64,000 nucleotides of DNA, from positions 1,389 through 65,388 of the forward strand of contig JASFEA010000001.1 of the NCBI GenBank assembly GCA_050125095.1, read 5' to 3'. Below the pieces are notes generated by a model, which was given only the letters and a program-made list of their open reading frames with translations, did not search any database and was not told the origin of the DNA. A program made the position numbers and the translations under genes. This DNA comes from a bacterium. Its GTDB lineage: Bacteria; Arandabacterota; Arandabacteria; Arandabacterales; JALGWA01. The first letter of the stretch is position 1. Each line of letters opens with the position of its first letter. This document shows positions 5,423-22,611 of this stretch, piece after piece.

Positions 5423-5977
5423 TTACTTGGGCGGAAAACCGGCCAGGATTCTGTCGACGACCTTGTCTATGTTCTTCTGTGCGTCCTCGGGAGTGCTGTA
5501 GCCCTTCACTATGGCGGTCCCCAGTCCCCTCCAGGCCAGCTCCTTGGTCCCGACGTCCACGAAGTCGATAACAAGGGTGCCTTCGGTGTAGTAGCTGACG
5601 TCTGTGTGGCCGCCATAGGGTCCCCACCACGGGTCGTAACTGTAATATCCGGAGTAGCCCCCGTAATTGGTAACCTGCATTTTCTCCTGGGTGCCCGCGT
5701 GAATCACTACCGCGAAGTCGGCGTTCTCGGGGTCGTCCACCATGGCAAAACCCCTGGCCTTCAGGTCCCTGTTCACGGACTCGGCGACGCGCTTGGCGAC
5801 CAGCGGGTAATCGGCCAGTGAGCTTCCTTCAATGACTCCGCTGTCTCCGACCCAGGCGTAAGTCTTGTACTTGCTGAAATCGACGTCCGGGTCGTAATCG
5901 GTCTTGACATCGACTGACGAACACCCGGCCAGCATAGCCAGTAAGAGGAAGGCTGAAGCTGCGGCAACCAGTCTCAT
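5423..5977 (-). CDS. DUF4136 family lipoprotein
   Basis: Lipoprotein signal MRLVAAASAFLLLAMLAGCSS, then the DUF4136 signature (DYDPDVDFSKYKTYAW ... ADFAVVIH ... GTLVIDFVD). The internal Met after a track ORF extension was chosen as the start. Confidence 0.7.
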   Translation of the reverse strand: MRLVAAASAFLLLAMLAGCSSVDVKTDYDPDVDFSKYKTYAWVGDSGVIEGSSLADYPLVAKRVAESVNRDLKARGFAMVDDPENADFAVVIHAGTQEKMQVTNYGGYSGYYSYDPWWGPYGGHTDVSYYTEGTLVIDFVDVGTKELAWRGLGTAIVKGYSTPEDAQKNIDKVVDRILAGFPPK

Positions 5978-6082
5978 TTTAATACCTCCTTGCTTTCCAT
6001 CGACTTGCCCCGGTGGATCCTGTGCGCGCTTATTGTAAATGCGGTCCTGCAGCGTGTCAACCATAATAGCCGCGCTTTGGAT

Positions 6083-6111
6083 TGACGTCCGGAGGCCGTG
6101 AATGTAGAATA
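6083..6111 (+). promoter_or_regulatory. Sigma-70-like promoter candidate TTGACG-N17-TAGAAT
   Basis: Lies 33 nt upstream of the 6144 OMP gene start. Spacing is optimal. Confidence 0.4.
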
Positions 6112-6143
6112 CAGTCTGTCTTCTGGCATGTGGACGAGGTTAA

Positions 6144-7559
6144 ATGCTCCTGAAAACTGGCGGTTACAGGGCCGGATTCCGGCTGTCCCTGACCTTACGG
6201 GCAGCTATAGCGGCCATAGCGGTGTTGGCTCTCTCCACGCCACTGTGGGCGCAGGACTCGCACTACTGGACGCTTACCTACGGCGCAAGAGCCTCGCTCC
6301 TGGGCGGAGCTCTCATAGGTTCGGTGATGGACCTCAGCGCCACGTACTATAATCCCGGAGCGCTTCCGCTTACTGAAGACCTCGACGTCGTTATGACCTC
6401 TACGGTGTTCAACTACCCGAATGTCTGGATGAAGGACATAGGTGGCACCGACATCGACATAAGGTCATCCAATCTCAACCAGGTGCCGATCGTCGTGGCC
6501 GGTATGTTCAAAGTCGACTGGCATGGGTCGAATCGCCTGGGCTATTCGGTTCTCACCCGCCACCGCGTCCGCCTGGACTTTTACGGCAGTGTGGTCCAGG
6601 GGGTCTATGACCTGCCGGATACCATCGATCTCAGCGCTTTCGCAGGTGACCTGAACCTTAACGAAGAACTGAGTGAGACATGGGTCGGGCTGTGCTGGGC
6701 ACGGCGTCTCAGGTCCGGCATAGGGTTCGGCCTTACGGCCTACGGCACCTTCAGGAATCACGATGCAAGTCTCGGCGTGAGCACCCAGGCTCTGGACCAG
6801 CGCGGCAATCTGGCATGTACGCAGGACATCGGGTACTATAGATACTCCGACTACGGGATTCTGGTTAAGATGGGAGTCTCATTCGGTTTCCAGGGTATTT
6901 CCTGCGGGCTGACACTCACGACGCCCAATTTGAGCGTTTACAGCGACGCCAAGGTCGGCACCAACCACACGAAAGCGGGATATGAAACCGGCGATCCGCC
7001 GAATCGGGGAGATTACATGGCCGTCCGGTACCAGGAGGGGCTCAAAGCCCATCACAAGATGCCCCTCTCGCTCGGGGCCGGTGCCAACTACAGCCTGGAC
7101 AATACGAGCCTGCACTTCAGCGTGGAGTATTTTTTCCCGGTCGATGAATACGATGTCATCAGTGCCGGTGATTTCGTGGGGCAGACCCATGGAGATACTC
7201 TCAGTCAGGGGGTTACCCATGCGGCGCGCGGCGTGCTCAACTTCGGCCTGGGGATCGAGCAGACACTGGGAGAGGATGTAAAAGCCTATGCCAGCTTCTC
7301 CACGGACTTCTCATCCAAAAGAAGGGACGTCCAGACCAACCTGTCGGTGAGCGACTGGGACATTTACAGCATAATGATTGGGTCCACATTCAGGGTAATG
7401 AAGGCCCGGTTCACCCTGGGCCTGGGCCTCGGCTGGGGCTCGGAGCTGCGCGGAAGTGGTGAGCCCGTGGCCATAGGGGGCGACGAGGGCGCGAGCCTCA
7501 TAAGGGAGGCTTCCTTCAAGTACCGCATGTATAAGTTCGTACTTGGATTCTCATTCTAG
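6144..7559 (+). CDS. Predicted outer-membrane beta-barrel protein (hypothetical)
   Basis: Signal peptide ...AVLALSTPLWAQ. Alternating amphipathic beta-strand composition rich in G/Y/T/S. The C-terminal ...FVLGFSF ends in Phe as in OMP beta-barrel signatures. A promoter-like motif lies upstream. Confidence 0.55.
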   Translation: MLLKTGGYRAGFRLSLTLRAAIAAIAVLALSTPLWAQDSHYWTLTYGARASLLGGALIGSVMDLSATYYNPGALPLTEDLDVVMTSTVFNYPNVWMKDIGGTDIDIRSSNLNQVPIVVAGMFKVDWHGSNRLGYSVLTRHRVRLDFYGSVVQGVYDLPDTIDLSAFAGDLNLNEELSETWVGLCWARRLRSGIGFGLTAYGTFRNHDASLGVSTQALDQRGNLACTQDIGYYRYSDYGILVKMGVSFGFQGISCGLTLTTPNLSVYSDAKVGTNHTKAGYETGDPPNRGDYMAVRYQEGLKAHHKMPLSLGAGANYSLDNTSLHFSVEYFFPVDEYDVISAGDFVGQTHGDTLSQGVTHAARGVLNFGLGIEQTLGEDVKAYASFSTDFSSKRRDVQTNLSVSDWDIYSIMIGSTFRVMKARFTLGLGLGWGSELRGSGEPVAIGGDEGASLIREASFKYRMYKFVLGFSF

Positions 7560-7705
7560 GGCAGTTATGATCTGACATAGGTATTGAGCCGTAAAAGAGG
7601 CCTACCCCGTACATCGACGGAGGAAGTCGCGGCAAGGAGGTGATCACGCAGAAGTAACCCCCTGACGGGATTCTCCAAGTCAGTTCTTCACTGGAGGTTG
7701 AGAAG

Positions 7706-8392
7706 ATGAAGCACAATGGTTTCAGCAAGCTCAAGTTTCTTTCGGCGGGTGCGGTGGCGTCGGCTGGAGTTGTCCTCCTGCTGCTGCTCTGCTCGTGCTA
7801 TCCGAGCTCCGACTTCAACTCGGTGGCCGACTACGACGTAGTGCTGACGCTTTACGATGAGGAACAGGACTTCAACGAGTACGTCACCTACTACATGGAG
7901 GACACCGTCTACCATTACAGGGACCCGGAGGACACATCCGACGACAATCTCAGCCGGGCACATGACGCGCTCATAATAGCCACGATCAAGTCCAACATGA
8001 ATGATCTGGGGTATCAGTTCAAGGCGGACGCCGACTCGGCGGACCCATCGGACCTCTACATAGTGGTGGGAGCGTCATCAAGCGACTGGTACAGCGTATG
8101 GTACCCGTATTACCCCTCATATCCGGGCTGGGGCTGGTGGGGCCCCGGCTGGTGGTGGGGCTATCCCGGGCCGCCTCAGGTCTCCTACGCGTACACTACC
8201 GGCACGCTTTCCATAGACATGTGGGACGCCAAGAACGCCGACGAGGACTATGAGATCGTGCCCGTGCCCTGGGCTGCGACCGTGAACGGCATATTGAATG
8301 ATAAATCGGCGGGCGTGGGAAACCGGATCGAGGACAGCGTAAATCAGGCGTTCGCACAGTCACCGTACCTTGGAACGAGCGAGGGGAGGTAG
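7706..8392 (+). CDS. DUF4136-like lipoprotein, divergent paralog A
   Basis: Lipobox LLLLCSC. Contains DYDVVLTLYDEE ... IVVGASSSDW ... TGTLSIDMWD. It carries a W/G/P-rich insert (YPGWGWWGPGWWWGYPGPP). It is paralogous to the 16494-17171 gene. Confidence 0.65.
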   Translation: MKHNGFSKLKFLSAGAVASAGVVLLLLLCSCYPSSDFNSVADYDVVLTLYDEEQDFNEYVTYYMEDTVYHYRDPEDTSDDNLSRAHDALIIATIKSNMNDLGYQFKADADSADPSDLYIVVGASSSDWYSVWYPYYPSYPGWGWWGPGWWWGYPGPPQVSYAYTTGTLSIDMWDAKNADEDYEIVPVPWAATVNGILNDKSAGVGNRIEDSVNQAFAQSPYLGTSEGR

Positions 8393-8398
8393 ACAGAT

Positions 8399-8995
8399 AT
8401 GAAATACGTACTTGCGATTCTGCTGTTGCTCGCCCTCTCTTCGTCGGCGCAAGCCTTTAGTTCCATGGGAGGGGCCACCTACAACGTGTCATTCGCGCTG
8501 GGCGACACGCGGGAGTTCATAGACGCGGTGAGCTGGAGGGGCTGGAACCTCGAAGGCCGTTGGTTCCATAACGATAATCTCTCTTTCGGACTCTCCTGGC
8601 ACTGGACCACCCTTCACGAGCAGGAGACCGGCACGTGGCCCGTAGAGGGAGGTCATGTGACAGGCGGCCAGTTCAGGCGGATAAGCACATCGCCCTTCCT
8701 GGTGAATACGCACTGGCACTTCGTCAACACCCGCGACCGCTACCAGAAATACATACCCTATCTGGGAATGGGTCTTGGCGCTTACTGGATCGAGACCCGG
8801 CACGAGATAGGCGTCTTCGCATTTGAGGACCGCAACTGGCACTTCGGGCTCGCTCCCGAGGCCGGGATGTTCGTCAACCTGAAGTTCGAGACCTATCTGA
8901 TGGTAACGCTGAGATATAATTACGCATTCAAGTCGGGTAGCGCGGAGAGCATGCAGTACGTCGCGCTCATGGTGGGACTGGCTTATCTGGAGTAG
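8399..8995 (+). CDS. Small predicted outer-membrane beta-barrel protein (OmpW/OmpA-beta-barrel-like), paralog A
   Basis: Signal peptide LLLLALSSSAQA. About 180 aa of alternating beta-strand pattern. Shares the GDTREFI motif with the 17175 paralog. The C-terminal aromatic-rich strand is LMVGLAYLE. The start is 7 nt after the DUF4136-like gene. Confidence 0.55.
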   Translation: MKYVLAILLLLALSSSAQAFSSMGGATYNVSFALGDTREFIDAVSWRGWNLEGRWFHNDNLSFGLSWHWTTLHEQETGTWPVEGGHVTGGQFRRISTSPFLVNTHWHFVNTRDRYQKYIPYLGMGLGAYWIETRHEIGVFAFEDRNWHFGLAPEAGMFVNLKFETYLMVTLRYNYAFKSGSAESMQYVALMVGLAYLE

Positions 8996-9041
8996 GCGGC
9001 CTGAGGACTTGCGGTCCGGTCGGGCCGGGTGGGATAATGAA

Positions 9042-9063
9042 GGGGCGTGCTTCGGCACGCCCC
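9042..9063 (+). terminator. Stem-loop ggggcgtgc-TTCG-gcacgcccc downstream of the 8399-8995 gene
   Basis: Perfect 9-bp GC-rich stem with a TTCG tetraloop, 47 nt after the stop codon. No U-run follows, so this is a terminator-like or RNA-stability hairpin. Confidence 0.4.
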
Positions 9064-9116
9064 TCTGCCAGATGTGAGTTGACTCGAGCCCGCTTTTCGA
9101 ATACGCTGAGCGCCGG

Positions 9117-9470
9117 TTGGTATCTGAACCTCAGTCATCCTTCATCTGTGAGGTAACGTCTATGCGACGATCAGGTATAGTCTGCGGCCCCCTTGTCGTC
9201 TTTCTGGCGACAGGTATTCTCGTCGGCGCTCTCGCCGGGGACGTCCAGGCGCGCACGGAGACTGTCGGCGTTGTCAGCGATGGGCCGGTTTCGATGGCTG
9301 CTGTCACAACAATCATGGGAATGATACCGCTTCCGGGTGGCGCGTTCTCCGCCGCCATGGCTGTGACCATAATGGCGGGGTCTCGGCGTGGCCACGGTTC
9401 TGGTCCTGGTGGTCTTGCCGGTGCTCTATGCTGTAATCTTCAGGGTACCGGCGCGAGAGGCCTGGACGTA
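9117..9470 (+). pseudogene. Remnant of the C-terminus of an RND (AcrB/CzcA family) efflux permease, frameshifted
   Basis: Frame 0 encodes ...AAVTTIMGMIPLPGGAFSAAMAVTIMAG, then the +1 frame continues GLGVATVLVLVVLPVLYAVIFRV. Together these match the last TM helices of AcrB (LMTSLAFILGVMPL...GAGSGAQNAVGTGVMGG MVTATVLAIFFVPVFFVVV). The frame switches at the GGGG run near 9377. The rest of the roughly 1000-aa pump is absent. Confidence 0.5.
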
Positions 9471-9528
9471 AGCAGGCGAAGACGTCGGCTGCTTTAGTAC
9501 AGCGTGGAGTATTAGCAGGGGAGGCGTA

Positions 9529-10356
9529 TTGAGACTTACGGGCCCCGGCGGAATCCATCACTACGTGGAGCGATTCCTGCGCTCCAATTCAAGCAGATTC
9601 GCAGGAAAGACGGTCGTAGATATTCCGGCAGGGACGGGGCGTTCTTCGGACGTGTTACGGAGCCTGGGAGCCCGGGTTGAGGCCTTCGACCTCTTTCCGG
9701 AGTCGTTCGCGGTGGATGGCCTGGAATGCAGGAAGGCCGACCTATCGCGTGACATCCCTCTTATGAGCGGCGCGGCGGATTATGTGCTCTCTCAGGAAGG
9801 AGTCGAGCATATTCCCGACCAGGTCGGCATGTTCCGAGAGTTCAATCGCATTCTCAAGAAAGGCGGCGGTCTCTTAATCACAACTCCCAACTATTCCAAC
9901 CTGAGAATCAAGATCGGGCAGCTTCTTTCGGAAAGCGAATACGCGTATAAGAAGATGCCGCCCAATGAACTGGACTCGATCTGGGGGCACGGCGCCGAAT
10001 GTGGTGATGTCTATTATGGGCATGTGTTCCCTGTCGGTATACAGAAACTGCGACTGCTCGCGAGGGTGGCCGGTTTTGCGATCAAGAAGGTCCACCGTAC
10101 CCGGGTGAACGGCTCTTCACTTGCCCTGATGTTTCTTTTCTATCCCCTGATTCTGACGGTGAATTATCTCGCGTATCTGAGGGCGATCGCGAAGCGAAAG
10201 GAAATTCCAATCGAGCAAAAGAGAGAGGTGTACGGCGAGGTCCTGAGATATGGAATCGACCCGCGAATTCTCCTCGACGGCTATCTGTTTGTGGAGTTCG
10301 AGAAAGAACATGAGGTCTCCGAGGAATTCTCGCGCCTGAGGGACAGGGACGCATAG
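9529..10356 (+). CDS. Class I SAM-dependent methyltransferase
   Basis: Motif I VVDIPAGTGRSS, the acidic residue after beta-2 (EAFDL), and motif post-I/II ...NRILKKGGGLLITTPN. The ORF begins with a non-ATG or leucine codon in the track, so the start is uncertain. Confidence 0.65.
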   Translation: MRLTGPGGIHHYVERFLRSNSSRFAGKTVVDIPAGTGRSSDVLRSLGARVEAFDLFPESFAVDGLECRKADLSRDIPLMSGAADYVLSQEGVEHIPDQVGMFREFNRILKKGGGLLITTPNYSNLRIKIGQLLSESEYAYKKMPPNELDSIWGHGAECGDVYYGHVFPVGIQKLRLLARVAGFAIKKVHRTRVNGSSLALMFLFYPLILTVNYLAYLRAIAKRKEIPIEQKREVYGEVLRYGIDPRILLDGYLFVEFEKEHEVSEEFSRLRDRDA

Positions 10357-10365
10357 AGATATGTC

Positions 10366-10393
10366 TTGACGGGTTGTGGAGCGTCACTAGACT
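10366..10393 (+). promoter_or_regulatory. Sigma-70-like promoter candidate TTGACG-N16-TAGACT
   Basis: Located 44 nt upstream of the 10437 start. Follows the same TTGACR/TAGNNT pattern seen at four other intergenic sites in the window. Confidence 0.35.
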
Positions 10394-10436
10394 CTGAGAC
10401 ATAGATGTCGGATTTAAGACAGGGAGAGATACACAT

Positions 10437-11279
10437 ATGACAATCCGGAAGACTTCGCTAGTGCTGCTTGCTTTACTGGTCTGTTTCTGTCCCGCGCTGG
10501 CTGCTGATGACGGCGTGGCAGAGCTGCCCTGGGAGAAGGGGTCCGTGAACCTGGGCGCGTACATGGCCGACCTCAACAGCTCTTTTCGCCTGGGGCTCGA
10601 CAATGTGGGACTCGGTCTCATTCTCGATACTGAGAAGTTTCTCGGGATGAAGGCCAATGACTACGCCTTCCGCGTCGGGGGCGCATACCGTATGGGCGAG
10701 AGCATGCGGCATAAGTTCGAGTTCGTATGGTTCAGCTTCGACCGGCGCTCTGAGAAGGAGATCACTGAAGATATAGAGCTGCCCCCGGAGCTGGGCGGAG
10801 ACACGCTCTACGTGGGCACGACGATCACCAGCACCTTCAAGTTCGACATAATAAAGGCCAAGTACAAGTATTCGATTGTACTCGACAACCGGGTCGACAT
10901 GAATGTCGGGTTGGGCTTTTATGTAATGCCGGTGACGATAGGTCTCGGGAAGAAGGGTGAGGAGCTCAAGTCTCAGGACATCACCGCGCCGCTCCCGGTT
11001 TTCGGTCTTGGCGTCGATGTGATCCTCACGCCCCGCTGGTTGCTCAAACAGAACCTGGACATCTTCTTCCTTAAGATCGGCAATTTCAGGGGGTCCATAC
11101 TGAACGCCCAAATGGCGCTCGAATACTCCAGATGGAAACACTGGGGAGTGGGGGCGGGCGTCGACGGGCTGCAGCTCAAGGTAGAGGCAGACGGCGACGA
11201 CTACCCGCTTATGGATTTCGTCGGGTCCCTTCAATTCTCTTATTTCGGCGCCCAGCTGTATGTCAAGTTCCTGTATTGA
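10437..11279 (+). CDS. Predicted secreted/outer-membrane beta-barrel protein (hypothetical)
   Basis: Signal peptide LVLLALLVCFCPALAADDG. Beta-strand-rich composition. C-terminal LYVKFLY has terminal aromatic residues. Confidence 0.5.
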   Translation: MTIRKTSLVLLALLVCFCPALAADDGVAELPWEKGSVNLGAYMADLNSSFRLGLDNVGLGLILDTEKFLGMKANDYAFRVGGAYRMGESMRHKFEFVWFSFDRRSEKEITEDIELPPELGGDTLYVGTTITSTFKFDIIKAKYKYSIVLDNRVDMNVGLGFYVMPVTIGLGKKGEELKSQDITAPLPVFGLGVDVILTPRWLLKQNLDIFFLKIGNFRGSILNAQMALEYSRWKHWGVGAGVDGLQLKVEADGDDYPLMDFVGSLQFSYFGAQLYVKFLY

Positions 11280-11315
11280 TCTGGCAGGTTTCAGGTCTGC
11301 CGCTGTGACGCGCAT

Positions 11316-11344
11316 TTGACACGCGGACGCGGTCTGGATATATT
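11316..11344 (+). promoter_or_regulatory. Sigma-70-like promoter candidate TTGACA-N17-TATATT
   Basis: The spacing is optimal (17 nt). Located about 25 nt upstream of the 11369 start. Confidence 0.4.
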
Positions 11345-11368
11345 CTGCCAGGGGCACTCCTTTCCAAT

Positions 11369-12478
11369 ATGCGGAAGGTCGGTATGAAGAGAATCTTGCT
11401 GCTTGCCGTGTTCCCGATTGTTCTCGCCTTAACCGTTCCCGCCCGCACCGCTACTCCGGATGAAAACCTGGAGGAGGCCATCGATTACCTGGTGGAGTTC
11501 GTCCGGACTTCGGATGTCGTATTCATACGTAACGACAAGGAGCACAATCCGGAAGAGGCGGCCTCGCATATGCTCAAGAAATACAAGTACGCAAAGAGGA
11601 AGGTGAAGACCCCCGAGGATTTCATCAGGTACTGCGCCACCGAGAGCACGATGAGCGGGAAGCCCTACCGTGTGAGGCTTGAGGACGGCAGAACCATTAC
11701 GTCTGAGGAGTGGCTGCTCGCGGCGCTCGAAGACTACAGGAGAGCCGACGGGGGTGAGGGTTTCGTCTTCGAGATGAGGGAGTTCCGCAAGCAGTATGGC
11801 ACCTGTCCGGCGCCGCAGGAGGACTGCGCGTCGGTAGTGGTGCGCTACCCGGAAATAAGCGGGGCGGACGCGAATTCCGCCATGGGAGCGATCGCCCGCG
11901 ATATCATGGCGCGCCTGGTGGCTCCCGTGTATGAGGATACGGAGCCCGGCACTCTTGCGGAGCTGGCCGATACCTTCATTGGGGCCTACAAGAACATGCA
12001 GACCGATTTCCCGGACTACAGGCTGGGCTGGATGCTCGAAAGAGAGGCCTCGGTCGAGTTCACGTGTGACTCTCTTGTCTCCATCGCCTACACCGAGATG
12101 TCCTTTGCGGGGGGCGCCCATCCCAACTCCAGGAAGAGATTCGCCAACTACCGGATGTCGGACGGCTCGTTGATCGATCTTAAGGATATCCTGGTTGAAG
12201 GGTACCGGAAGCAACTCACGAGGGCGGCGGAGATGGCCTTCAGGGCGGACAGACAACTGGATGAAGACGACAGCCTCGAGGAGGCCGGCTTCTGGTTCGA
12301 GGGCGGCGAGTTTGATCTGAATGACAACTTCGGTATCGCTGCCGGCGGACTCGTTTTTCACTTCGGTTATTACGAGATCGCGCCCTATGCTATGGGGCCG
12401 ACGGAGATTGTCGTGCCTTACGATAAGATATCTTCATTTATACGGGCGGACGGGCTTCTAAAAGGAGTTGTCAGGTGA
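11369..12478 (+). CDS. Exported hypothetical protein with DUF3298-like (RsiV-type, GGAHP motif) C-terminal region
   Basis: Signal peptide ILLLAVFPIVLALTVPA. The C-terminal region contains ...YTEMSFAGGAHPNS..., which is reminiscent of DUF3298/DUF4163. The N-terminal domain is unassigned. Confidence 0.5.
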   Translation: MRKVGMKRILLLAVFPIVLALTVPARTATPDENLEEAIDYLVEFVRTSDVVFIRNDKEHNPEEAASHMLKKYKYAKRKVKTPEDFIRYCATESTMSGKPYRVRLEDGRTITSEEWLLAALEDYRRADGGEGFVFEMREFRKQYGTCPAPQEDCASVVVRYPEISGADANSAMGAIARDIMARLVAPVYEDTEPGTLAELADTFIGAYKNMQTDFPDYRLGWMLEREASVEFTCDSLVSIAYTEMSFAGGAHPNSRKRFANYRMSDGSLIDLKDILVEGYRKQLTRAAEMAFRADRQLDEDDSLEEAGFWFEGGEFDLNDNFGIAAGGLVFHFGYYEIAPYAMGPTEIVVPYDKISSFIRADGLLKGVVR

Positions 12479-14844
12479 AATCTATTATCACTGCTTTGAC
12501 GGTGGTGGTGGGCCTGGCCGGCCCGTCGACTGCATCGGGCGCGATAGAGTGGCCTCAGCAGATCGACACGGCCGAGGCCACTATTGTCATATACCAGCCC
12601 CAGCTGGAGTCATTTGAGGGGAACAAACTGTCCGCGCGGGCGGCCGTTTCGGTTAAGGGCCGCGAAGCCCAGGAGCCCGTCTTCGGGGCCGCCTGGGTGG
12701 ACGCCAGGGTATCGACAGACACCGATGAGAGGACAGTGCATCTGATATCGGCTGAAGTCACGGCGGTCAAGTTCCCCGAGGCGACGGACGAGCAGGTCGA
12801 GTGGTTCAAAGGGGTGGTGAAGGCGGAGATCGAGAGCTGGGGTCTGACGATGTCGCTTGACCAGCTCATAGCTGACCTAGACCTCACGGAGAAGGAGATA
12901 GCAGCCTCCGAGAACCTCAAAAACGATCCCCCCCGGGTCATTTACAGAACCGAGCCCGCGGTCCTGGTCCTGATCGACGGCGACCCGGTTCTACAGGATG
13001 TCGAGGAAGGCCTCAAGGCGGTCGTGAACACGTCATTCTTCATAGTCTACGACACGCAATCTGAGACGTATTATCTGACGGGAGGCGATTACTGGTACTC
13101 GACCAATAACCTCGAAGGTGAGTGGAGGCAGATCGATTCGCCGCCGAAGAAAATCAGCGACCTGGCCGCTGAGATGCAGATGATGTCAGAGGACGACATG
13201 GAGAAGGTCTCCGCGGCGATGGACAGCGCGGGTTTCTCGGCCGATGTCGCCCCTGAGATCGTCGTTGCCGACGAGCCCGCAGAGCTCATCGTCTCTGACG
13301 GAGCCGCAGATTTCGCGCCGATTGAGGGGACGGGTCTCCTCTATATGACCAACTCCGAGACGGACATCATAATGGTGATAGACAGCCAGAAGTACTACGT
13401 GCTTCTGGCCGGCCGCTGGTATGCGTCGGAAAAAATGTCGGGGGGTACCTGGGCTTTCGTTCCCCCGGACGATCTGCCGGAGGACTTTGCAAGCATCCCC
13501 GAGGACTCGGACATCGGAGAAGTGAGGGCGAGCGTCCCGGGCACGGTGGAGGCCAAGGAGGCCGTGCTCGAGAACCAGATCCCGCAGACGGCGGCGGTGC
13601 ACCGAGACAGCGCGGCGGTGGAGGTCACCTATGACGGAGATCCGGAGTTCGAGAAGTGCGGCGACTCGGGTGTTTATTATGCGAAGAATACCGACAAAGC
13701 CGTGCTCATGATTGACAGGACCTATTACTGCTGTGACGACGCGGTCTGGTTCGTATCCGGCTCGCCCGACGGACCTTACGAGGTAGCGGACGAAGTGCCC
13801 GATGAGATAAGGACGATGGGCCCGGAGTGCCCTCACTATAACGTCAAGTATGTCTATATATATGATTCCACGCCTGAAGTCGTCTATGTGGGTTACACGC
13901 CCGGATACACCTGCTCTTATGTGTACGCGGGGACAGTCGTCTACGGCACGGGATGGTGGTACCGGCCATGGTGGGGCACATATTATTATCCGAGGCCTGT
14001 GACCTGGGGGTTCGGAGTCCACTACAATCCCTATACCGGCTGGGGCTTTTCCTTCGGTATGAGCTTCGGGTGGGTGGGATGGCGTTGGGGTTGGTGGGGA
14101 CCGCATTATGGCGGTTGGTGGGGACCGGGGGGTTATCGATGGGGTTACAGGCACGGCTATCGGCACGGATATTATCATGGTTACCGCCATGGATACTATG
14201 CCGGACGACGCGCGGGCTATGTTCATGGTCGCGCCGACGCCGCGCTCCGTAATCATAATAACATTTACAGAAACAAGCCGGGAGTGAGGCCGGCGGACCG
14301 CCCCGTTACGCGGCCGTCCACCCGACCGTCGACGCAGCCATCGACCCGGCCGTCGACCCGGCCGTCCACGCAGCCATCGACGCGGCCGTCCACGCAGCCG
14401 TCCACCCGGCCGTCGACGCAGCCATCGACCCGGCCGTCGACGCAGCCATCGACGCGGCCGTCGACGCAGCCATCGACCCGGCCGTCGACAATGCCGGCAT
14501 CCCCTGCGGATGGTTCGACTATGGACAGGAGTAGACCTGCCCAGACTCAGAATAATGTGTTTGCCGACAAGAACGGCAATGTCTACAGAAAGACCGACAG
14601 CGGGTGGCAGTCGCGGGACGGGGGCAACTGGAACAGCCCCGACAGGTCCTCGCCGAGTACGAGGCAGAATTTCAATAGCAATAGATCAGATCTCAACCGG
14701 CAGTCCATGGCGCGCGACCGTGGGAATCAGAGGACCCAGACCTATAATAACTGGCAGAGCACCCAGCCCGCGGGCCGGCAACGGCCCCAGACCCAGCAGC
14801 GGCCGAGCGGCGCAAAGGGCGGGAGCAACCGCACGCGCAGGTGA
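12475..14844 (+). CDS. Large secreted hypothetical protein with a Trp/Gly/Tyr-rich segment, PST[RQ]P tandem repeats and an N/Q/R-rich tail
   Basis: Signal peptide VVVGLAGPSTASGA, a 789-codon ORF, and 4-nt overlap with the upstream gene. The composition is described under the findings. Confidence 0.6.
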   Translation: MKSIITALTVVVGLAGPSTASGAIEWPQQIDTAEATIVIYQPQLESFEGNKLSARAAVSVKGREAQEPVFGAAWVDARVSTDTDERTVHLISAEVTAVKFPEATDEQVEWFKGVVKAEIESWGLTMSLDQLIADLDLTEKEIAASENLKNDPPRVIYRTEPAVLVLIDGDPVLQDVEEGLKAVVNTSFFIVYDTQSETYYLTGGDYWYSTNNLEGEWRQIDSPPKKISDLAAEMQMMSEDDMEKVSAAMDSAGFSADVAPEIVVADEPAELIVSDGAADFAPIEGTGLLYMTNSETDIIMVIDSQKYYVLLAGRWYASEKMSGGTWAFVPPDDLPEDFASIPEDSDIGEVRASVPGTVEAKEAVLENQIPQTAAVHRDSAAVEVTYDGDPEFEKCGDSGVYYAKNTDKAVLMIDRTYYCCDDAVWFVSGSPDGPYEVADEVPDEIRTMGPECPHYNVKYVYIYDSTPEVVYVGYTPGYTCSYVYAGTVVYGTGWWYRPWWGTYYYPRPVTWGFGVHYNPYTGWGFSFGMSFGWVGWRWGWWGPHYGGWWGPGGYRWGYRHGYRHGYYHGYRHGYYAGRRAGYVHGRADAALRNHNNIYRNKPGVRPADRPVTRPSTRPSTQPSTRPSTRPSTQPSTRPSTQPSTRPSTQPSTRPSTQPSTRPSTQPSTRPSTMPASPADGSTMDRSRPAQTQNNVFADKNGNVYRKTDSGWQSRDGGNWNSPDRSSPSTRQNFNSNRSDLNRQSMARDRGNQRTQTYNNWQSTQPAGRQRPQTQQRPSGAKGGSNRTRR
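14305..14492 (+). repeat. In-frame tandem repeat, 15-nt unit (PSTRP/PSTQP) about 12 copies, equal to a 30-nt unit about 6 copies
   Basis: DNA ccgtcgac[cg]c[ag]gcc[ga]tc... repeats in phase with the ORF, giving RPSTRPSTQPSTRPSTRPSTQPST.... The opposite-strand track ORF 14306-14500 is its shadow. Confidence 0.85.
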
Positions 14845-14867
14845 AATGTCGGCGGGTCCTGAGGACG

Positions 14868-14920
14868 TTGCGCATTTTCAGACCTGACCCCGGCTGTTGT
14901 GCATTTTCAGACCTGACCCC
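14868..14920 (-). repeat. Two direct copies of a 24-nt element (minus-strand reading GGGGTCAGGTCTGAAAATGC[GA]CAA) with period 29
   Basis: Plus strand has TTGCGCATTTTCAGACCTGACCCC at 14868-14891 and TTGTGCATTTTCAGACCTGACCCC at 14897-14920. The same element recurs at 50473-50497, see findings. Confidence 0.7.
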
Positions 14921-14981
14921 TACGATGACCACGTCTATTCTCTCCTGCGGCCGGCGGGGAAGCCGGGGGGAGAACGACCGC

Positions 14982-16106
14982 CTATTTCCGGGGACGCGTA
15001 GCGACCCGGTAAGCGGCGAGCCCGGCGAAGATGGCCCCGATGAGTATCAGGCCCCTCCAGAAGGCGTGGTCCACCACCGCTCTTGTGCGGGCCTCGTAAT
15101 CTGCCGCGGCGCCGTCCACAGTCTTCTGGAGCTCGGCGAGCACCGGTTCCAGGTCGGTGCTCAGGCCCGCGAAAGCCTCAATCCTCTGGTTTCGGATTCC
15201 GTCGACAAGCGTCACTCCCAGCCTGTCGAATCCACCCGAGATGGACGAGTTGACGTCGTCTATTGACCCTGCAGTCCTTCCGAAACCCCCTGACAGGGAG
15301 TTGTCCATCCTGTCGAGGCTCCCGCGTAGCTCGGAGATGTCCCTGAAAGCGACCTGGATGTCCTCGACCTCCATGAGGCCCAGCGAGGCGAGCTCCAGCT
15401 GCCACTGAACCTGCCTGGGGATTATGTCGGTGTAAACGGTCAGGCGCATCCGCAGCTCCTGGACGCTCTCCTCCAGGGACTCGAAACCCGCGGTCCAGTC
15501 CGGCTTCTGGGCGACCATCACCCCGGCGACAAGGGGAATGACCGAGTCGCGAATGAAGAAGTGACTCTGAACGGGGTGATCCTGGGCCCAGCCATAGACG
15601 TCATGTCTTACCGCGGCAACCCCGTCATCGCCCAGTGCCAGCGCTGCAATGCCGGCGAGTTCCCTCTCCATGCCTTCGGCCGCCTCGAGGGCGATGGCCT
15701 GCCCCTCGCCGAAGGCCCCGGCTCCCGGGCCGGTGGCGAAGTAGTCCCTCATCTGTACGGTGAGCACCCACGTATCGATGAGCGCCGCATAGGGGTCCAG
15801 CCTGAACATGGCCTTGTGATAGGCCGGTATGGCATAGATCTTCCACAGCAGTGCCTGCTTATAGATCTCGGGGTCGTCCGTCCCCGCGTCTATCCTGTAG
15901 GCGGCCTCCTCGATCAGAACAGGATAGCGCACCGCGAATTCGTGCATCCTTATCCTGAGTTCGGCCGCCGACATGTCCCTGACACCGGCATGCTCCATGA
16001 GGGGCGTCATGCCGGGGGACGAAGAGCAGGCCGATACACAAAGCAAGGCGATTGCGGTCAAGGCCCTCACAGGGGCCTGCCCGTGGAGCCTCAAGGACGC
16101 ATTCAT
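14982..16106 (-). CDS. Hypothetical lipoprotein/membrane-associated protein
   Basis: The internal start MNASLRLHG... gives a lipoprotein-like signal (ALLCVSACSS). Contains repeated SxSGGF[GD]R segments and a C-terminal TM helix GLILIGAIFAGLAAY. The track ORF extends to 16181. Confidence 0.5.
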   Translation of the reverse strand: MNASLRLHGQAPVRALTAIALLCVSACSSSPGMTPLMEHAGVRDMSAAELRIRMHEFAVRYPVLIEEAAYRIDAGTDDPEIYKQALLWKIYAIPAYHKAMFRLDPYAALIDTWVLTVQMRDYFATGPGAGAFGEGQAIALEAAEGMERELAGIAALALGDDGVAAVRHDVYGWAQDHPVQSHFFIRDSVIPLVAGVMVAQKPDWTAGFESLEESVQELRMRLTVYTDIIPRQVQWQLELASLGLMEVEDIQVAFRDISELRGSLDRMDNSLSGGFGRTAGSIDDVNSSISGGFDRLGVTLVDGIRNQRIEAFAGLSTDLEPVLAELQKTVDGAAADYEARTRAVVDHAFWRGLILIGAIFAGLAAYRVATRPRK

Positions 16107-16493
16107 ATGTATCCTCCCGCGATATGCTCTTTGTTGCGCTTCCTGCTCTTTATAGCACAGAAGCCCGGAGTTTGCGAGCACCTAATGCCTCAGGCCAGCC
16201 ATCGCTCATCAAGGGGTCACCGCTTCCGTAGACAGGACGCCGTGGATCGGTGTATCGTTACCGGAAAGGGCTTGTCACATATGACCTACCGGGGCAAGGT
16301 GTATATACTGGCCTGGATGTTGTCATTGACGGCCCATCTATCGGCGTGAGCTTCTTCTGTTGAGGGCGGCGGGAGGGGCCGCCCGGCCGCGGAACGGAGC
16401 TGTTCCGGATTCGCTCGAGTCCGTCTTGGTTCTGGACGATTCTTTATGCATGGGTTAGTGTTAGGGTAAGTGGTGGTGAAGGAGGATGGCCAT

Positions 16494-17171
16494 ATGAGAA
16501 TCAGAGGGCTCAGAATTTGCGCCATCAGGGCCGCCGTCGGCCTGATTGCGGCTGCCCTGGGAAGCGTCATGCTCGCGTCGTGCACCCCCGAGGGCGCCTT
16601 CCAGAACGCCGAGGACTATGATGTCGTGGTGACGCTCTACGATAAGGAAACCGATTACGGCTCCATACGGACTTACCTTATGCCCGATTCGGTGGTGCAT
16701 TTCCAGGATCCCCAGAATCCGGGCCAGTCTCTCACGCATGACTACGATGACCTCATTCTCGAGAGGGTGGAGTATAATCTCCAGGCAATAGGCTACAGGA
16801 GGGAGAGTGACCCCGAGAACGAGGACCCCGACATAATCGTCATGGTCTCGGCCACTTCGTCCGACTGGCAGGCGTATAGTTACCCCTGGCTTCCCAGGTG
16901 GGGATGGTGGGGCCAGTGGCCTGGCGGAACCACAGACTGGTATTACCAGAGTCCGTACTACGGCAGCGGAGGCGTGTATACTTTCTCAACGGGCACGCTT
17001 CTTATCGACATGGGTGACATCAGGGAAGCGGATGAGGAAGAGGAGATGAAGGGGATCTGGACGGCCGCCATGAACGGCGTGCTTATGGAGGAAGCCTCGG
17101 GCGCTCCCCAGAGACTGGTCGACTTCATCGACCGGGCTTTCAGCCAGTCGCCATACCTAGGAGCGGACTGA
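16494..17171 (+). CDS. DUF4136-like lipoprotein, divergent paralog B
   Basis: SD AAGGAGGA lies 7 nt upstream of ATG 16494. Lipobox MLASCT. Contains DYDVVVTLYDKE ... IVMVSATSSDW ... PRWGWWGQWPGG ... TGTLLIDMGD. Colinear with the 7706-8392 gene. Confidence 0.65.
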   Translation: MRIRGLRICAIRAAVGLIAAALGSVMLASCTPEGAFQNAEDYDVVVTLYDKETDYGSIRTYLMPDSVVHFQDPQNPGQSLTHDYDDLILERVEYNLQAIGYRRESDPENEDPDIIVMVSATSSDWQAYSYPWLPRWGWWGQWPGGTTDWYYQSPYYGSGGVYTFSTGTLLIDMGDIREADEEEEMKGIWTAAMNGVLMEEASGAPQRLVDFIDRAFSQSPYLGAD

Positions 17172-17174
17172 TAG

Positions 17175-17780
17175 ATGAAGAACAACCTGCTGGCCGCACT
17201 GATTGCGTTGCTCATATTGATTTCCTCGGCACCTGCCGCCGTCGGCCAGGGATCGCTTACGAGCCTGTCCTGGGACCCGTCGTTTCCCACGGGCGATACC
17301 CGGGAGTTTATAGGCAAGTTCTCCTGGCGAAGTTTCGGTCTCGACGTCAAGGGGTTCATGACGCCGCGTTTTGCAATGGGCGCGTCTTTTGACTGGCGCC
17401 TATTCAACGAAGTGAGCAGCAAGACAATAGAGATCGAGGACGGCCATGTGAGCGGCACCCAGACACGCCGGCTGTATGCGATTCCCGTGCTTCTCACCAC
17501 GAGCTATTACTTCGGTTCATTCAGGGACTATCCCCGGTTTATACCCTATATCGGGGGCGGGGGAGGGGCGTACTATATAGAGGAGAAACTCGAAATCGGC
17601 GTCTATACGATGAAGCAGAAAGCCTGGAACTTCGGGCTCTGCGCCGAGATCGGGACGCTTTTCCAGTTCTCCTATGGATACGCCATGCTGCGGTTCAAGT
17701 ATCACTATGCATTCGAAAGTGAGGACGTCGCTCCGGTCTCGTGGTGGAGCGTGGGGATAGGCATAGTGGACACGCATTAG
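17175..17780 (+). CDS. Small predicted outer-membrane beta-barrel protein, paralog B
   Basis: Signal peptide ALLILISSAPAAVGQ. Shares the GDTREFI motif and is colinear with the 8399-8995 gene. The start is 4 nt after the DUF4136-like gene, the same cassette arrangement as paralog A. Confidence 0.55.
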   Translation: MKNNLLAALIALLILISSAPAAVGQGSLTSLSWDPSFPTGDTREFIGKFSWRSFGLDVKGFMTPRFAMGASFDWRLFNEVSSKTIEIEDGHVSGTQTRRLYAIPVLLTTSYYFGSFRDYPRFIPYIGGGGGAYYIEEKLEIGVYTMKQKAWNFGLCAEIGTLFQFSYGYAMLRFKYHYAFESEDVAPVSWWSVGIGIVDTH

Positions 17781-17868
17781 CCGGCTTCCGTATCAGGCAG
17801 CCGGAACCGGCCCTTCCGCAGGGATCACACAAAAGGCCTCTTCGCCTGCTTGGTCCCGAACATCCTCA

Positions 17869-18432
17869 TCACTGGGCCTGCCCCGTGGGCGGGTAGAGCG
17901 CCATGACTTCCCGGACGATGTCTTTGATCATCTGGTCGGCCTCCTCCGGCGTCAGATTCTCAAGCACCTTCTGCGCCGAACCCCTCCAGACCAGCACCTT
18001 GGTGTTGGCGTCCACGAAATCTATTATGAGCGTGCCCTCCTGGTATTCATAAGTGTCCACGTTCCTAGTATTCCATCCCCAGTAGCGCCCGGTTGAGGCG
18101 TAGGAGTAGCCCCAGTCGGTGACGTCCACTTTATCTTCGACGCCGACGTGGTAGAACACGACGATGTCCGGGCTGGACGTCGTGGCGGTGAAACCCTTGG
18201 CCGCCATCTCGCTGTCTACCGCGCTTCGGATGCGCATGTCGGTTATATCGCCGGCGGTCCTCAGGTGCTCGGGGATCTTGTCCGGCGGCAGGACTTCATC
18301 GAGCCAGGCATAGGTCCTGTATACCGAGAAGTCCGCGGAGGTATCGTAGTCGGCGTTTACGGCTGTCTGCTGCGAGCAGGTCAATGCCACGGCAGCGAGG
18401 CAGAATAGCGCGAGGCAGGCGGCGAGTTTCAT
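17869..18432 (-). CDS. DUF4136 family lipoprotein
   Basis: Lipobox AVALTCSQ. Contains DYDTSADFSVYRTYAW ... DIVVFYH ... GTLIIDFVD. Colinear with the 5423-5977 gene. Confidence 0.7.
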   Translation of the reverse strand: MKLAACLALFCLAAVALTCSQQTAVNADYDTSADFSVYRTYAWLDEVLPPDKIPEHLRTAGDITDMRIRSAVDSEMAAKGFTATTSSPDIVVFYHVGVEDKVDVTDWGYSYASTGRYWGWNTRNVDTYEYQEGTLIIDFVDANTKVLVWRGSAQKVLENLTPEEADQMIKDIVREVMALYPPTGQAQ

Positions 18433-19542: not shown

Positions 19543-22500
19543 CTAGAGTGCCGTCTTGAGCCAGCGGCCCAGCCATTCCTTGAAGCCGCCGTACCTCGGC
19601 ATCAGGTCTTGAAGTTCCTCGATGCTGTTGACCCAGGTGGTCGTGGAGATCATGCCCAGAAAGTCAAGATAGGCCAGCATGGCCCCCCGCTGGCCCACGA
19701 CATAAAGCACTTCGGCATCCATGAACTTGCCGCGGTAGTTCTGGTTGTGTGAGCCCAGAGTGAGGTATATGACCATTCTCTCTATTTCCGCGGGCGTGTG
19801 CGCCTGGAAGAAGGCCGTCGTGACCCTGCCGGTGTCGTCAGACAGCTCGTCCCGGAGGTCTTCTGTGCTAACATACTCGTCCCTGCGGCTCGTCTGCTCC
19901 GCTCTGGCCAGGAAGTAGCTGAGTATAAGCTCACGCCAGCCCTCAACTCCGAGTATCCCGTCAAGGGCTTCCTGGGACACGAAGAACTGCGTTTTGAGAT
20001 GAAGCTTGGGCTTCCGGTTCTCGACGTCGGCCACGAGGTAGACCGGCTCGTAGCCCTGGGCGACCAGGCGGTCGACTAGCTCATTGAGGACCCCGCGCAC
20101 GGACGGCTGGAAGGGCATGAGGTCGAGCAGCCAGGGGTTCTTCTTGAGCCCCTCCTGGACGCCCTCCGCATGAGCGATCTGGTTGCCGACGTCGACGTCA
20201 AGGTTGTAAACGCCTGTCCTGAAAAGCCCCCCGGCATGAGCTATGTCCTCTGCCATCTCCTCCTGTATCACCACAAACTTGGTGAAGAGCTCATTGGCGC
20301 GTGACATCTGGGGGACTCCGCTCGAGGGGGCGTTCTCGAGCGAAGGCGCGATCACGAGCACCTTGCATCCCCGGAAGGCGGCCCCGACGAGCATCCCTCC
20401 CCAGAAGGGGCTGTTCCAGAGGGAGTCCGGTATGTACATATGCGAGCCGGCTGGCATGAGATTGTACAGCACGGCCTTTACGAGGTTGGCGTGCTTGGGA
20501 TGGAGGTAGCCCGTGGCGTTGTGTGCCTGCATGGCTTGCTGAGTCCATCCCCGGGCAACCAGGTCCCCGACCATGTCAGTGTAATTGTCGGGCCTCCGAA
20601 TGGGGCGGAGGCAGGGAGGAATCTCACCCGGCTTGAATCCCTGCGAAAGGAGGACCTCTCGCGCCGCATGCTTGGTATAAACGGCGGCGGGCCCTCGAAC
20701 CAGCAGCGCCCTGTCGTCCCAGGTGGGCCCGGAGTAATGCTCGCCCACTCCCATCCCGGTGAACATTGACTCGCCGCGGCCGGGGTCGCGTTCGGTGACG
20801 TCGTAGAAACTTATCTTCCTGTGGTCCCTCATCACGTTGTCGGGCGCAAGCGGGAAGTAGTCAAAGAGATGGGAGGCCCTGAACGAAAGGTCCGAGGGGT
20901 TGGTGATATTCACATGCACTTTTATCTTGTTATAGAGCCAGTCCTTGCCGTATATCCTGAGTCCATTCTGCAGCTCTTCCGATTCGGCCACGGCCTTGCG
21001 CAATTCATCCTGTAGACTGAGTATCTCTTCTTCCCACCCCTCAAAGCCCCCGGGGAGGCTCATCCTGTGCCTAAGCGGGTCCGCGAGGAGCTCGAGCCAG
21101 AGCGCGCCGTCATTGACGGCGTAATAGAACTCGTCGATTATGATGATATATGTAGGTATTTTGCCCGTCTTATCGAACTCCCTGACCTTGTCGATGAGGG
21201 CCCGCATATATCCTTCAGTGGTCATGGCGTAGCCGACGGTGTCCGGCGTGCCGGCCGCGTTCACGCCCTTGTAGTCGTGAATCCAGAGGACGTGATAGTC
21301 CTCCGCCGCGTGTATCATGCGGTGGAGCTCCCACTGGAACTGCTCATTGATGATATAGTGAATGTCATTGCCCGTGGTCATCTCGGACTCGAGGAACTTC
21401 TCGAGAATGGCGTCAATCTCGCTCTGGGTGTCGTGGTCCTCAATTGTGAAAACGTAGTGGAGCGGCAGCCAGACCACCCGGGGCGTCCGCCAGAGCTTGC
21501 GCTGCCGGGCCCTGCTCTCATCCATGATCTCGATAAGGCGGTGAAAGACGTATTCGGCCGCCCTCACTTGCTCCCCGGGGAGGCCGGATGCCTCAAGCAG
21601 GTAATCGTGGAAGGCTTCTTCCGCCTCTGCCCCCAGTCCAAGCAGAGTGTCATTGGCCTTCCACTGGCCCAGGAGCCGGTTATAGGGAAGCACGACCTCC
21701 TCTAAGAGTATCTCCCTCGCCCTTACCGCGAGAGCGCTTCCGGCCTCTTCGCTGCCTGCGGCCAGGGTGAAGGCATGAATGAGGTTCCTGTGGTAGAACC
21801 GTATCTCGGCTTCGAAGGTGTGCCCCCCGGGGAAGTCCTCGTCGGTGGCGTAGTATTTCTCGCGGGCCTGAGCCAGCGCCTTCCGGAATTCAACGATGTC
21901 GCCCTCGTCGGAGCCGCGCTTGCGGTCGAGGAAAGGAGACGTGAAGTAGGTGATTTCTTCGGCTCCTTCGGAGATGTTGGCGAGCGCTTCCGCCAGTTCG
22001 GCCGACGGCCGGTATGGCTTCTCGAATGTGCGCCCGGGTTCGGGCGGCAGCGTCACATGGGCCAGCCGCGGCCGAGTCCTGCCCATATACGGCTGGCGGA
22101 GAGGCGTGACTATGCCGAAGTTATAGGACCTCCCGCGGCCTCCCGAAACGATGTCAAGCCGGAAGTCGCCGCCGCGCTGTATGGGCCCGCCCCTCCACAT
22201 GGGGAGCTGTATGTTCCAGATGAATCTCAGCGTCTCCTCCCTGAAGGAATAGTCCGCGCCGATGCCCAGGAGAAACGTCTTTACCGTGAAAAAACCGCGA
22301 AGGCCCCCGTCGGCTTCGGATTCTATCGCGGCGAGGTAAGCCTCGCCCATGAGGCCTATGCCCATGTTGGGATTTCCCAGGTCGCGGTAAACGCCCAGAA
22401 GGACCTCGCCGCCCCCGCGGGATTCCTCCTCGCGCCGGTCCCACTTGAGCATGGCCCCGGCGTAGGGCTTGTACTTGGAATGGAATCCCATGGACTTGAT

Positions 22501-22611
22501 TTCTTCGCCGCGCTCGGGCCAGCCGGCGTCATCCTGTCCGAATGCCGGCGCCGCCGCGCCGGCGACCAGTGAGGCTGCAAGAAGAACCGCCAGAGTTCCC
22601 GCTTTCTTCAT
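19543..22611 (-). CDS. Large secreted hypothetical protein (1022 aa)
   Basis: Signal peptide MKKAGTLAVLLAASLVAGAAAPAFGQ. Uninterrupted 1022-codon ORF with coding-like composition. No domain confidently recognised. Confidence 0.6.
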   Translation of the reverse strand: MKKAGTLAVLLAASLVAGAAAPAFGQDDAGWPERGEEIKSMGFHSKYKPYAGAMLKWDRREEESRGGGEVLLGVYRDLGNPNMGIGLMGEAYLAAIESEADGGLRGFFTVKTFLLGIGADYSFREETLRFIWNIQLPMWRGGPIQRGGDFRLDIVSGGRGRSYNFGIVTPLRQPYMGRTRPRLAHVTLPPEPGRTFEKPYRPSAELAEALANISEGAEEITYFTSPFLDRKRGSDEGDIVEFRKALAQAREKYYATDEDFPGGHTFEAEIRFYHRNLIHAFTLAAGSEEAGSALAVRAREILLEEVVLPYNRLLGQWKANDTLLGLGAEAEEAFHDYLLEASGLPGEQVRAAEYVFHRLIEIMDESRARQRKLWRTPRVVWLPLHYVFTIEDHDTQSEIDAILEKFLESEMTTGNDIHYIINEQFQWELHRMIHAAEDYHVLWIHDYKGVNAAGTPDTVGYAMTTEGYMRALIDKVREFDKTGKIPTYIIIIDEFYYAVNDGALWLELLADPLRHRMSLPGGFEGWEEEILSLQDELRKAVAESEELQNGLRIYGKDWLYNKIKVHVNITNPSDLSFRASHLFDYFPLAPDNVMRDHRKISFYDVTERDPGRGESMFTGMGVGEHYSGPTWDDRALLVRGPAAVYTKHAAREVLLSQGFKPGEIPPCLRPIRRPDNYTDMVGDLVARGWTQQAMQAHNATGYLHPKHANLVKAVLYNLMPAGSHMYIPDSLWNSPFWGGMLVGAAFRGCKVLVIAPSLENAPSSGVPQMSRANELFTKFVVIQEEMAEDIAHAGGLFRTGVYNLDVDVGNQIAHAEGVQEGLKKNPWLLDLMPFQPSVRGVLNELVDRLVAQGYEPVYLVADVENRKPKLHLKTQFFVSQEALDGILGVEGWRELILSYFLARAEQTSRRDEYVSTEDLRDELSDDTGRVTTAFFQAHTPAEIERMVIYLTLGSHNQNYRGKFMDAEVLYVVGQRGAMLAYLDFLGMISTTTWVNSIEELQDLMPRYGGFKEWLGRWLKTAL

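Follow-up and report, generated by a model that had tools for sequence, protein, structure and literature searches.

Two lipoprotein-barrel cassettes within 13 kb

In the stretch of contig JASFEA010000001.1 analyzed here (positions 1,389 to 65,388 of the forward strand; 64,000 nucleotides (nt), hereafter the window), four genes for DUF4136 lipoproteins and two genes for small outer-membrane β-barrels lie within 13 kb, and each barrel gene directly follows a DUF4136 gene on the same strand. We refer to these two gene pairs as cassettes 1 and 2. An earlier note made from the letters of this DNA had proposed the four lipoproteins and asked for a check with hidden Markov models (HMMs). We found its open reading frames (ORFs) where it had placed them, and all four lipoproteins score well above the gathering threshold of the DUF4136 model PF13590, which is 32.8 bits. 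The six genes and their features are listed below; the lipoboxes were read from the sequence, without a lipoprotein predictor, and "canonical" and "paired-type" denote two subfamilies described in the next section.

5423-5977, minus strand: canonical DUF4136 lipoprotein, 184 amino acids (aa); PF13590 138.8 bits; lipobox LAGC
7706-8392, plus strand: cassette 1 lipoprotein, paired-type DUF4136 (BT2437-like), 228 aa; PF13590 94.3 bits; lipobox LCSC, followed by YP
8087-8179, plus strand: Trp/Tyr/Gly/Pro-rich loop of the cassette 1 lipoprotein, aa 128-158, WYSVWYPYYPSYPGWGWWGPGWWWGYPGPPQ
8399-8995, plus strand: cassette 1 barrel, 198 aa, signal peptide and predicted 8-stranded outer-membrane β-barrel
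8498-8518, plus strand: motif GDTREFI of the cassette 1 barrel, residues 34-40, in loop 1; a further motif of this barrel, NWHFGLAPEAG, lies in strand 6
16494-17171, plus strand: cassette 2 lipoprotein, paired-type DUF4136, 225 aa; PF13590 72.1 bits; lipobox LASC; C-terminal SQSPYLG
16866-16973, plus strand: aromatic loop of the cassette 2 lipoprotein, aa 125-160
17175-17780, plus strand: cassette 2 barrel, 201 aa, paralog of 8399-8995; barrel-family HMM E 2e-70; GDTREFI at residues 40-46, nt 17292-17312
17869-18432, minus strand: canonical DUF4136 lipoprotein, 187 aa; PF13590 140.3 bits; lipobox ALTC

HMM searches of all ORFs in the window gave no further DUF4136 gene and no further member of the barrel family, so all six genes are confined to the 13 kb. 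No NCBIfam model matches any of the six proteins. The description of the cassettes as colinear paralogs holds, with 35% identity between the lipoproteins (E 1e-46) and 37% between the barrels (E 8e-38), as does the observation that GDTREFI is common to both barrels. The two lipoproteins said to flank the region on the opposite strand are indeed there, and both are canonical by HMM. The gene spacing is not the identical 4-7 nt that had been reported: the spacers are 6 nt in cassette 1 (TAG acagat ATG) and 3 nt in cassette 2 (TGA tag ATG). In each cassette the lipoprotein gene contains a Shine-Dalgarno-like GGAGG/AGGAG close to its 3' end, and a ribosome-binding site in this position fits translational coupling of the two genes. 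The canonical genes are preceded by promoter-like sites of their own, TTGACA-17-TACAAT at 6060-6032 ahead of 5423-5977, and a perfect TTGACA-18-TATAAT at 18494-18465 ahead of 17869-18432.

A DUF4136 subfamily and its barrel

To describe the lipoproteins further, we used two HMMs built from other genomes only, one from DUF4136 proteins encoded next to a barrel (paired) and one from DUF4136 proteins with no adjoining barrel (canonical). The cassette lipoproteins score far better with the paired model (222 vs. 46 bits for 7706-8392 and 210 vs. 36 bits for 16494-17171), while the flanking copies score better with the canonical model (192 vs. 63 bits for 5423-5977 and 167 vs. 59 bits for 17869-18432). 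By these scores, the window lipoproteins fall into two subfamilies, two canonical and two paired-type. The paired subfamily has motifs of its own. Cys-Tyr-Pro after the lipobox is nearly universal, and the C-terminal motif Q-S/T-x-Y/F-L (QSPYL) is found in both window copies and in 60 of 71 paired members elsewhere, compared with none of 16 unpaired ones. The paired-type loop is 25-35 residues long and consists almost wholly of Trp, Tyr, Gly and Pro: these account for 27 of the best 30 loop residues in the cassette 1 lipoprotein and for 21 in that of cassette 2, against medians per 30 residues of 26 for paired-type proteins elsewhere and 15.5 for canonical ones. The earlier note had described this loop as a Trp/Gly/Pro-rich insert. 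The loop is present in the paired lipoproteins but, rather than being an insert as such, is the enlarged form of an aromatic loop that the canonical copies already have in a shorter version.

We then asked how constant the pairing is, since its repetition in one genome was the basis for proposing that lipoprotein and barrel are coupled. A forward scan with the barrel alignment as query, taking one genome per species, returned 80 loci, to which four were added from exact-protein look-ups. Each of the 84 loci has a paired-type DUF4136 gene directly upstream of the barrel gene on the same strand, although the lipoprotein of one locus (L082) was detected only with a better HMM. These loci come from Krumholzibacteriota (the closest, with 42-45% identity), Ignavibacteriota, Bacteroidota, Gemmatimonadota, Calditrichota, Chlorobiota and Eiseniibacteriota, and three are Anaeromyxobacter/deltaproteobacterial records. 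A reverse scan of metagenomes with the lipoprotein motif [QR]AFxQSPYL[GKR] gave more than 600 matches, from which 80 loci were returned, 75 of them evaluable downstream. Here, the barrel directly follows the motif-bearing lipoprotein in 74 of the 75; nine loci had appeared to be without a barrel, and in eight of these it was recovered by a six-frame HMM search, longest-ORF calling having missed it. The barrel is also found downstream of the lipoprotein in L085 and L086. Thus, the coupling extends well beyond this genome, to at least eight phyla, and the pair is present in approximately 99% of 159 loci with invariant order, strand and spacing, the gaps being mostly 0-60 nt. Pairing is confined to the one DUF4136 subfamily that has these distinctive motifs.

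The pair also diverges together. The distance matrices of lipoproteins and barrels correlate with a Mantel r of 0.78 (permutation maximum 0.12), which indicates that the pair is inherited and diverges as a unit. That the module has been amplified and diversified, as previously suggested, is borne out by the 35-37% identity of the window cassettes, which makes them old paralogs, and by other genomes that likewise carry more than one copy. No barrel in the other retrieved loci exceeds 45% identity to either window barrel; for the cassette 1 proteins, identity to database homologs goes up to 73-84%. One candidate natural fusion of lipoprotein and barrel (L016, 6245-7603, 452 aa), considered as Rosetta-stone evidence, was rejected: it is a frameshift at QSPYL in a long-read metagenome-assembled genome, and its barrel keeps a signal peptide.

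In connection with structure, the window DUF4136 lipoproteins have the fold of the solved family member, PDB 4F54, which is BT2437 of Bacteroides thetaiotaomicron. The profile of the paired subfamily matches 4F54 along its entire chain (E 1e-53), with the aromatic loop and QSPYL both covered. BT2437 is a paired-type member, at approximately 26-32% identity to the window lipoprotein. Single-sequence phmmer searches of PDB sequences with the canonical lipoprotein or the barrel gave nothing useful, and profiles were needed. A protein 62% identical to BT2437 is followed after 20 nt by a barrel gene, whose product is 29% identical to the window barrel, and BT_2438 itself has been listed as an OMP_b-brl domain protein (PMC8931616). 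BT2437 is one of four B. thetaiotaomicron clones recognized early by gut IgA (PMC6831775). In the literature that we retrieved on DUF4136, PF13590/IPR025411 and BT2436-2438, we found listings and no functional study; DUF4136 is listed, for example, in Burkholderia two-component operons and in vesicle proteomes. The components of the module, an 8-stranded barrel dedicated to one DUF4136 subfamily, come from known superfamilies, and none of the papers searched describes their pairing as a unit.

For the barrel, AlphaFold2 with an alignment of 30 sequences predicts eight antiparallel strands of the outer-membrane type, with a predicted local distance difference test score (pLDDT) of 89.4, and places GDTREFI as a short helix in the first extracellular loop. 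The window barrels have no Pfam match even at E ≤ 0.1. Among their relatives, 22 of 30 match PF13505 (OMP_b-brl) and 15 of 30 match PF03922 (OmpW) at E ≤ 0.01, and the only PDB sequences matched by the family profile are OmpW (E 0.03) and AlkL (E 0.07). Judged by sequence, the family is a divergent branch of the OMP_b-brl/OmpW superfamily rather than a recognized member of it. It is also large: an exhaustive profile search gave 1809 clusters at 50% identity with E ≤ 1e-3, 480 of them with E ≤ 1e-30, and all of the 150 best-scoring matches are 177-230 aa long.

Strand-parity analysis of 277 sequences assigns E52, R54, N70, Q91, R93, N96, R119, Y121, H148, E154, R172, N174 and N191 to the interior face, together with many conserved glycines. 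This pattern points to a polar, closed core, as in OmpA, OmpX and NspA and unlike the hydrophobic channel of OmpW. Two prolines in the membrane strands, P99 and P153, are 97-98% conserved. Conservation, expressed as mean top-residue frequency, peaks in that half of the membrane span which lies in the outer leaflet (0.57, with 9 of 40 positions at 0.8 or above), followed by the extracellular hairpins and loops (0.48-0.50), and is lowest in the periplasmic turns (0.22, with no position at 0.8 or above). In outer-membrane proteins the extracellular loops are normally the most variable part, so the conserved extracellular parts make this barrel unusual. It is set apart from the small barrels to which we compared it, namely the N-domain of OmpA, NspA, OmpX, OmpW, PagL and the Legionella Dot/Icm "porin III" (9nh2), by 12-16% identity, by an extracellular half that is conserved rather than variable, and by its obligatory lipoprotein gene partner.

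A catalytic role for the NWHFGLAPE motif was considered and rejected, because His148 is not universal. It is conserved in 78% of sequences and replaced in the Bacteroides branch, which has TWGFYVSPEIG where the window barrel has NWHFGLAPEAG. Enzymes of the PagL and PagP type have an invariant catalytic His/Ser/Glu or His/Asp/Ser. In a lead-level comparison with the PagL motifs, we did not find invariant catalytic residues of this type, nor a Ser two residues after the His.

Genes around the pair

Gene content around the pair differs between loci, yet envelope genes abound in it, with recurring canonical DUF4136 copies, a second OMP_b-brl barrel beside the pair in 21 loci and Omp85-like barrels in 12. 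In the window, two accessory genes accompany the cassettes:

6144-7559, plus strand: 471-aa outer-membrane protein, directly upstream of cassette 1
12475-14844, plus strand: 789-aa secreted protein, lineage-specific

The 471-aa gene may be co-transcribed with cassette 1 from a promoter-like site at 6082-6110. Its product resembles FadL/PorV only in an N-terminal "YYNPG" motif (PorV_fam E 0.006); none of 12 members of its family has a Pfam match, and the best approach to a FadL homolog is E 1.3. Homologs adjoin the pair in 12-14 loci, among them records from Krumholzibacteriota, Ignavibacteriota, Bacteroidota and Calditrichota.

The 789-aa protein had been singled out for carrying the WWGP-type motif of the lipoprotein loops. 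Such a block, of the aromatic/Gly kind, is present at aa ~455-590 (nt 13837-14244), and with a mean column identity of 60% across five aligned homologs it is not low-complexity drift. In L003-L006, L009 and L012, homologs with 43-45% identity (BLASTP; 48-50% by MAFFT) are encoded upstream of the pair and on its strand, and the family is linked to the pair only in these six Krumholzibacteriota-like loci. We considered the protein as a general partner of the pair and rejected this, as the family is unlinked to the pair in L087 and L088, the two other loci examined. The family has more than 3305 members, spread over several phyla and without a Pfam domain, and identities of 44-56% along most of the protein are seen across Bacteroidota, Chlorobi, Gemmatimonadota and Krumholzibacteriota; some NCBI records name the members "carbohydrate-binding family V/XII", and there are three internal "YY..G.WY.S....G.W..V" repeats. 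In the window gene, nt 14308-14489 form a 12/24-nt tandem repeat encoding PSTRPSTQ approximately 7.5 times, which is absent from four aligned homologs. Upstream, at 10437-12478 on the plus strand, a gene for a barrel-like protein of 280 aa, without homologs in any of the fetched loci, is followed by one for a protein with DUF5329, PdaC and DUF3298 domains. The stop of the latter and the start of the 789-aa gene share 4 nt, and these genes are probably one operon.

Two further proteins are encoded on the minus strand, one of 399 aa (14982-16181) with lipobox VSAC and a C-terminal hydrophobic helix, and one of 1022 aa (19543-22611); neither has a Pfam match or a homolog in the fetched loci. Elsewhere, a family of approximately 160 aa, all-helical and secreted, with a signal peptide and no Pfam model, directly precedes or follows the pair in 26 of 84 loci (e.g., L005 3429-3890 and L015 3510-3992). 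It has FWPIYREYE and LTDEQ-like motifs, is possibly Spy/CpxP-like, and is absent from the window. In L041 (8116-10109), a 453-aa lipoprotein with a seemingly barrel-like C-terminal half precedes a second barrel. Lastly, Algoriphagus aestuarii (L086, 1-7654) has ten outer-membrane genes in a row on the same strand: in order, they encode a protein of 515 aa, OMP_b-brl, Porin_O_P, Omp85, a protein of 159 aa, the DUF4136-barrel pair, an Omp85-like protein and another two DUF4136 proteins.

What the pair may do

We tentatively propose, as the likeliest reading, though one that comes close to probable without reaching it, that the two proteins form a stoichiometric complex in the outer membrane, with the lipoprotein docked on the surface side and the closed barrel serving as an anchor rather than a pore. 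This reading draws on the reciprocal linkage, the tight spacing, the co-divergence, the motifs of the paired subfamily, and the closed barrel with its conserved outer half. Both products would be made in matched amounts and would assemble into a stable complex, for which we infer direct physical binding at a 1:1 stoichiometry. The barrel, closed and with a polar core, would act as an anchor or docking partner, and the lipoprotein would meet it through its tether and aromatic loop near the outer-leaflet interface, where the conserved aromatic girdle and the extracellular hairpins lie, thereby placing the DUF4136 domain on the cell-surface side. As to the cellular role, our guess would be envelope architecture or surface binding rather than transport.

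The suggestion in the earlier note that the lipoprotein might be the plug or partner of a channel did not fare well. The fold of the lipoprotein resembles those of PelC, TraT and LptE, and LptE does plug a barrel, but LptD has 26 strands, whereas the window barrel is predicted to have eight, with an interior filled by conserved polar and charged residues and glycines, and carries no Lpt signature. An 8-stranded barrel cannot hold a plug domain, and a plug is the idea least compatible with the modeled polar core.

Several points weigh against the complex that we propose. Operon conservation and co-divergence would also be expected for co-inherited genes of one pathway. The surface orientation draws on the AlphaFold2 topology, the conservation gradient and one IgA dot-blot, and the acidic export signal that follows the Cys in Bacteroidota lipoproteins is missing here, the sequence being C-Y-P-G/D instead. 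The aromatic loop is modeled at low confidence (pLDDT below 50 at residues 139-154 of the cassette 1 lipoprotein). The pairing has its deviations, as L041 contains an extra barrel copy (9516-10109) without a paired lipoprotein, and in L150 (629-1642) the place of the barrel after a paired-type lipoprotein is taken by another outer-membrane-like ORF, of 337 aa. Finally, among structural relatives whose partner is known the closest is PelC, which is located on the periplasmic side.

The last point leads to an alternative in which the lipoprotein would oligomerize in the manner of PelC or TraT on the inner leaflet of the outer membrane, with the barrel as anchor or nucleus of a periplasmic ring. 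The PelBC complex has twelve PelC lipoproteins seated on the barrel of PelB, and its assembly requires a tryptophan that is conserved in PelC (PMC12141448). That ring, however, lies on a large secretion barrel with TPR domains, and the partner in the window is a small closed one; we found neither pel genes nor a large barrel nearby, and the similarity to PelC is one of fold, without a sequence-level relation. TraT is anchored by three amphipathic helices of its own, within a decameric helical barrel, and lacks a barrel partner (PMC11733297). Neither these helices, which are absent from the model of the window lipoprotein, nor PelB has a counterpart here, and the TraT model PF05818 (threshold 31 bits) reaches only 16.7 bits (E 0.0067), with 5423-5977 alone. 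Moreover, the poorly conserved periplasmic turns of the barrel are short (4, 10 and 2 residues), leaving little for a periplasmic partner to recognize, and we consider a ring unlikely. It seems to us improbable, too, that there is no complex at all and that the two are abundant envelope proteins merely co-transcribed in outer-membrane gene islands. The neighborhoods are certainly rich in OMP_b-brl, Omp85-like, Porin_O_P and further DUF4136 genes. Yet the neighbors change from locus to locus while the pair stays the same across phyla, and of DUF4136 only the subfamily with motifs of its own takes part in it.

Two further possibilities would give the barrel a more active part. In one, it would be an OmpW/AlkL-like barrel with a lateral opening for the uptake of hydrophobic compounds, with the aromatic loop as a lid and the FadL-like 471-aa protein in the same pathway. 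The matches of the family to OmpW, AlkL and PF03922, the conserved prolines P99 and P153 in the membrane strands, and the recurrence of the FadL/PorV-like neighbor all favor this. A lumen of the OmpW type would have to be hydrophobic, and strand parity, as opposed to coordinates, puts polar and charged residues inside, so that we find such uptake quite doubtful. In the other, the barrel would assemble or expose its own lipoprotein, in a Slam-like manner or by holding the tether and loop as OmpA/OmpC hold RcsF. One dedicated barrel per lipoprotein copy, the nearly universal Cys-Tyr-Pro tether, the glycine-rich lumen, the conserved outer half and the recognition of BT2437 by IgA would all be consistent with such private export or anchoring. 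Against it, a chain could hardly be threaded through an 8-stranded lumen that is filled with charged side chains, and the canonical DUF4136 lipoproteins manage without such a barrel; we regard it as a rather slim prospect. The same low expectation applies to the specific version in which each barrel keeps its own DUF4136 lipoprotein in place and presents it at the surface, with the Trp/Tyr/Gly/Pro loop as an interfacial or ligand-binding platform. The Bacteroidota-related phyla have no known machinery for lipoprotein surface export.

Whichever of these applies, DUF4136 proteins are widespread outer-membrane lipoproteins with a crystal structure but no assigned function, and one of their subfamilies is locked to a private barrel from Bacteroides to Gemmatimonadota and Krumholzibacteriota. 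The barrel family itself, with more than 1000 clusters, is only partly detected by current Pfam and NCBIfam models. The pairing turns DUF4136 into a testable hypothesis of a two-protein complex, for which BT2437-BT2438 of B. thetaiotaomicron offers a tractable model. If the pair does form a surface-exposed complex, it would bear on how the cell surface is built in these phyla, and if it is a surface-display unit, it would be an example of how lipoproteins are placed outside the cell in Bacteroidota-related phyla.

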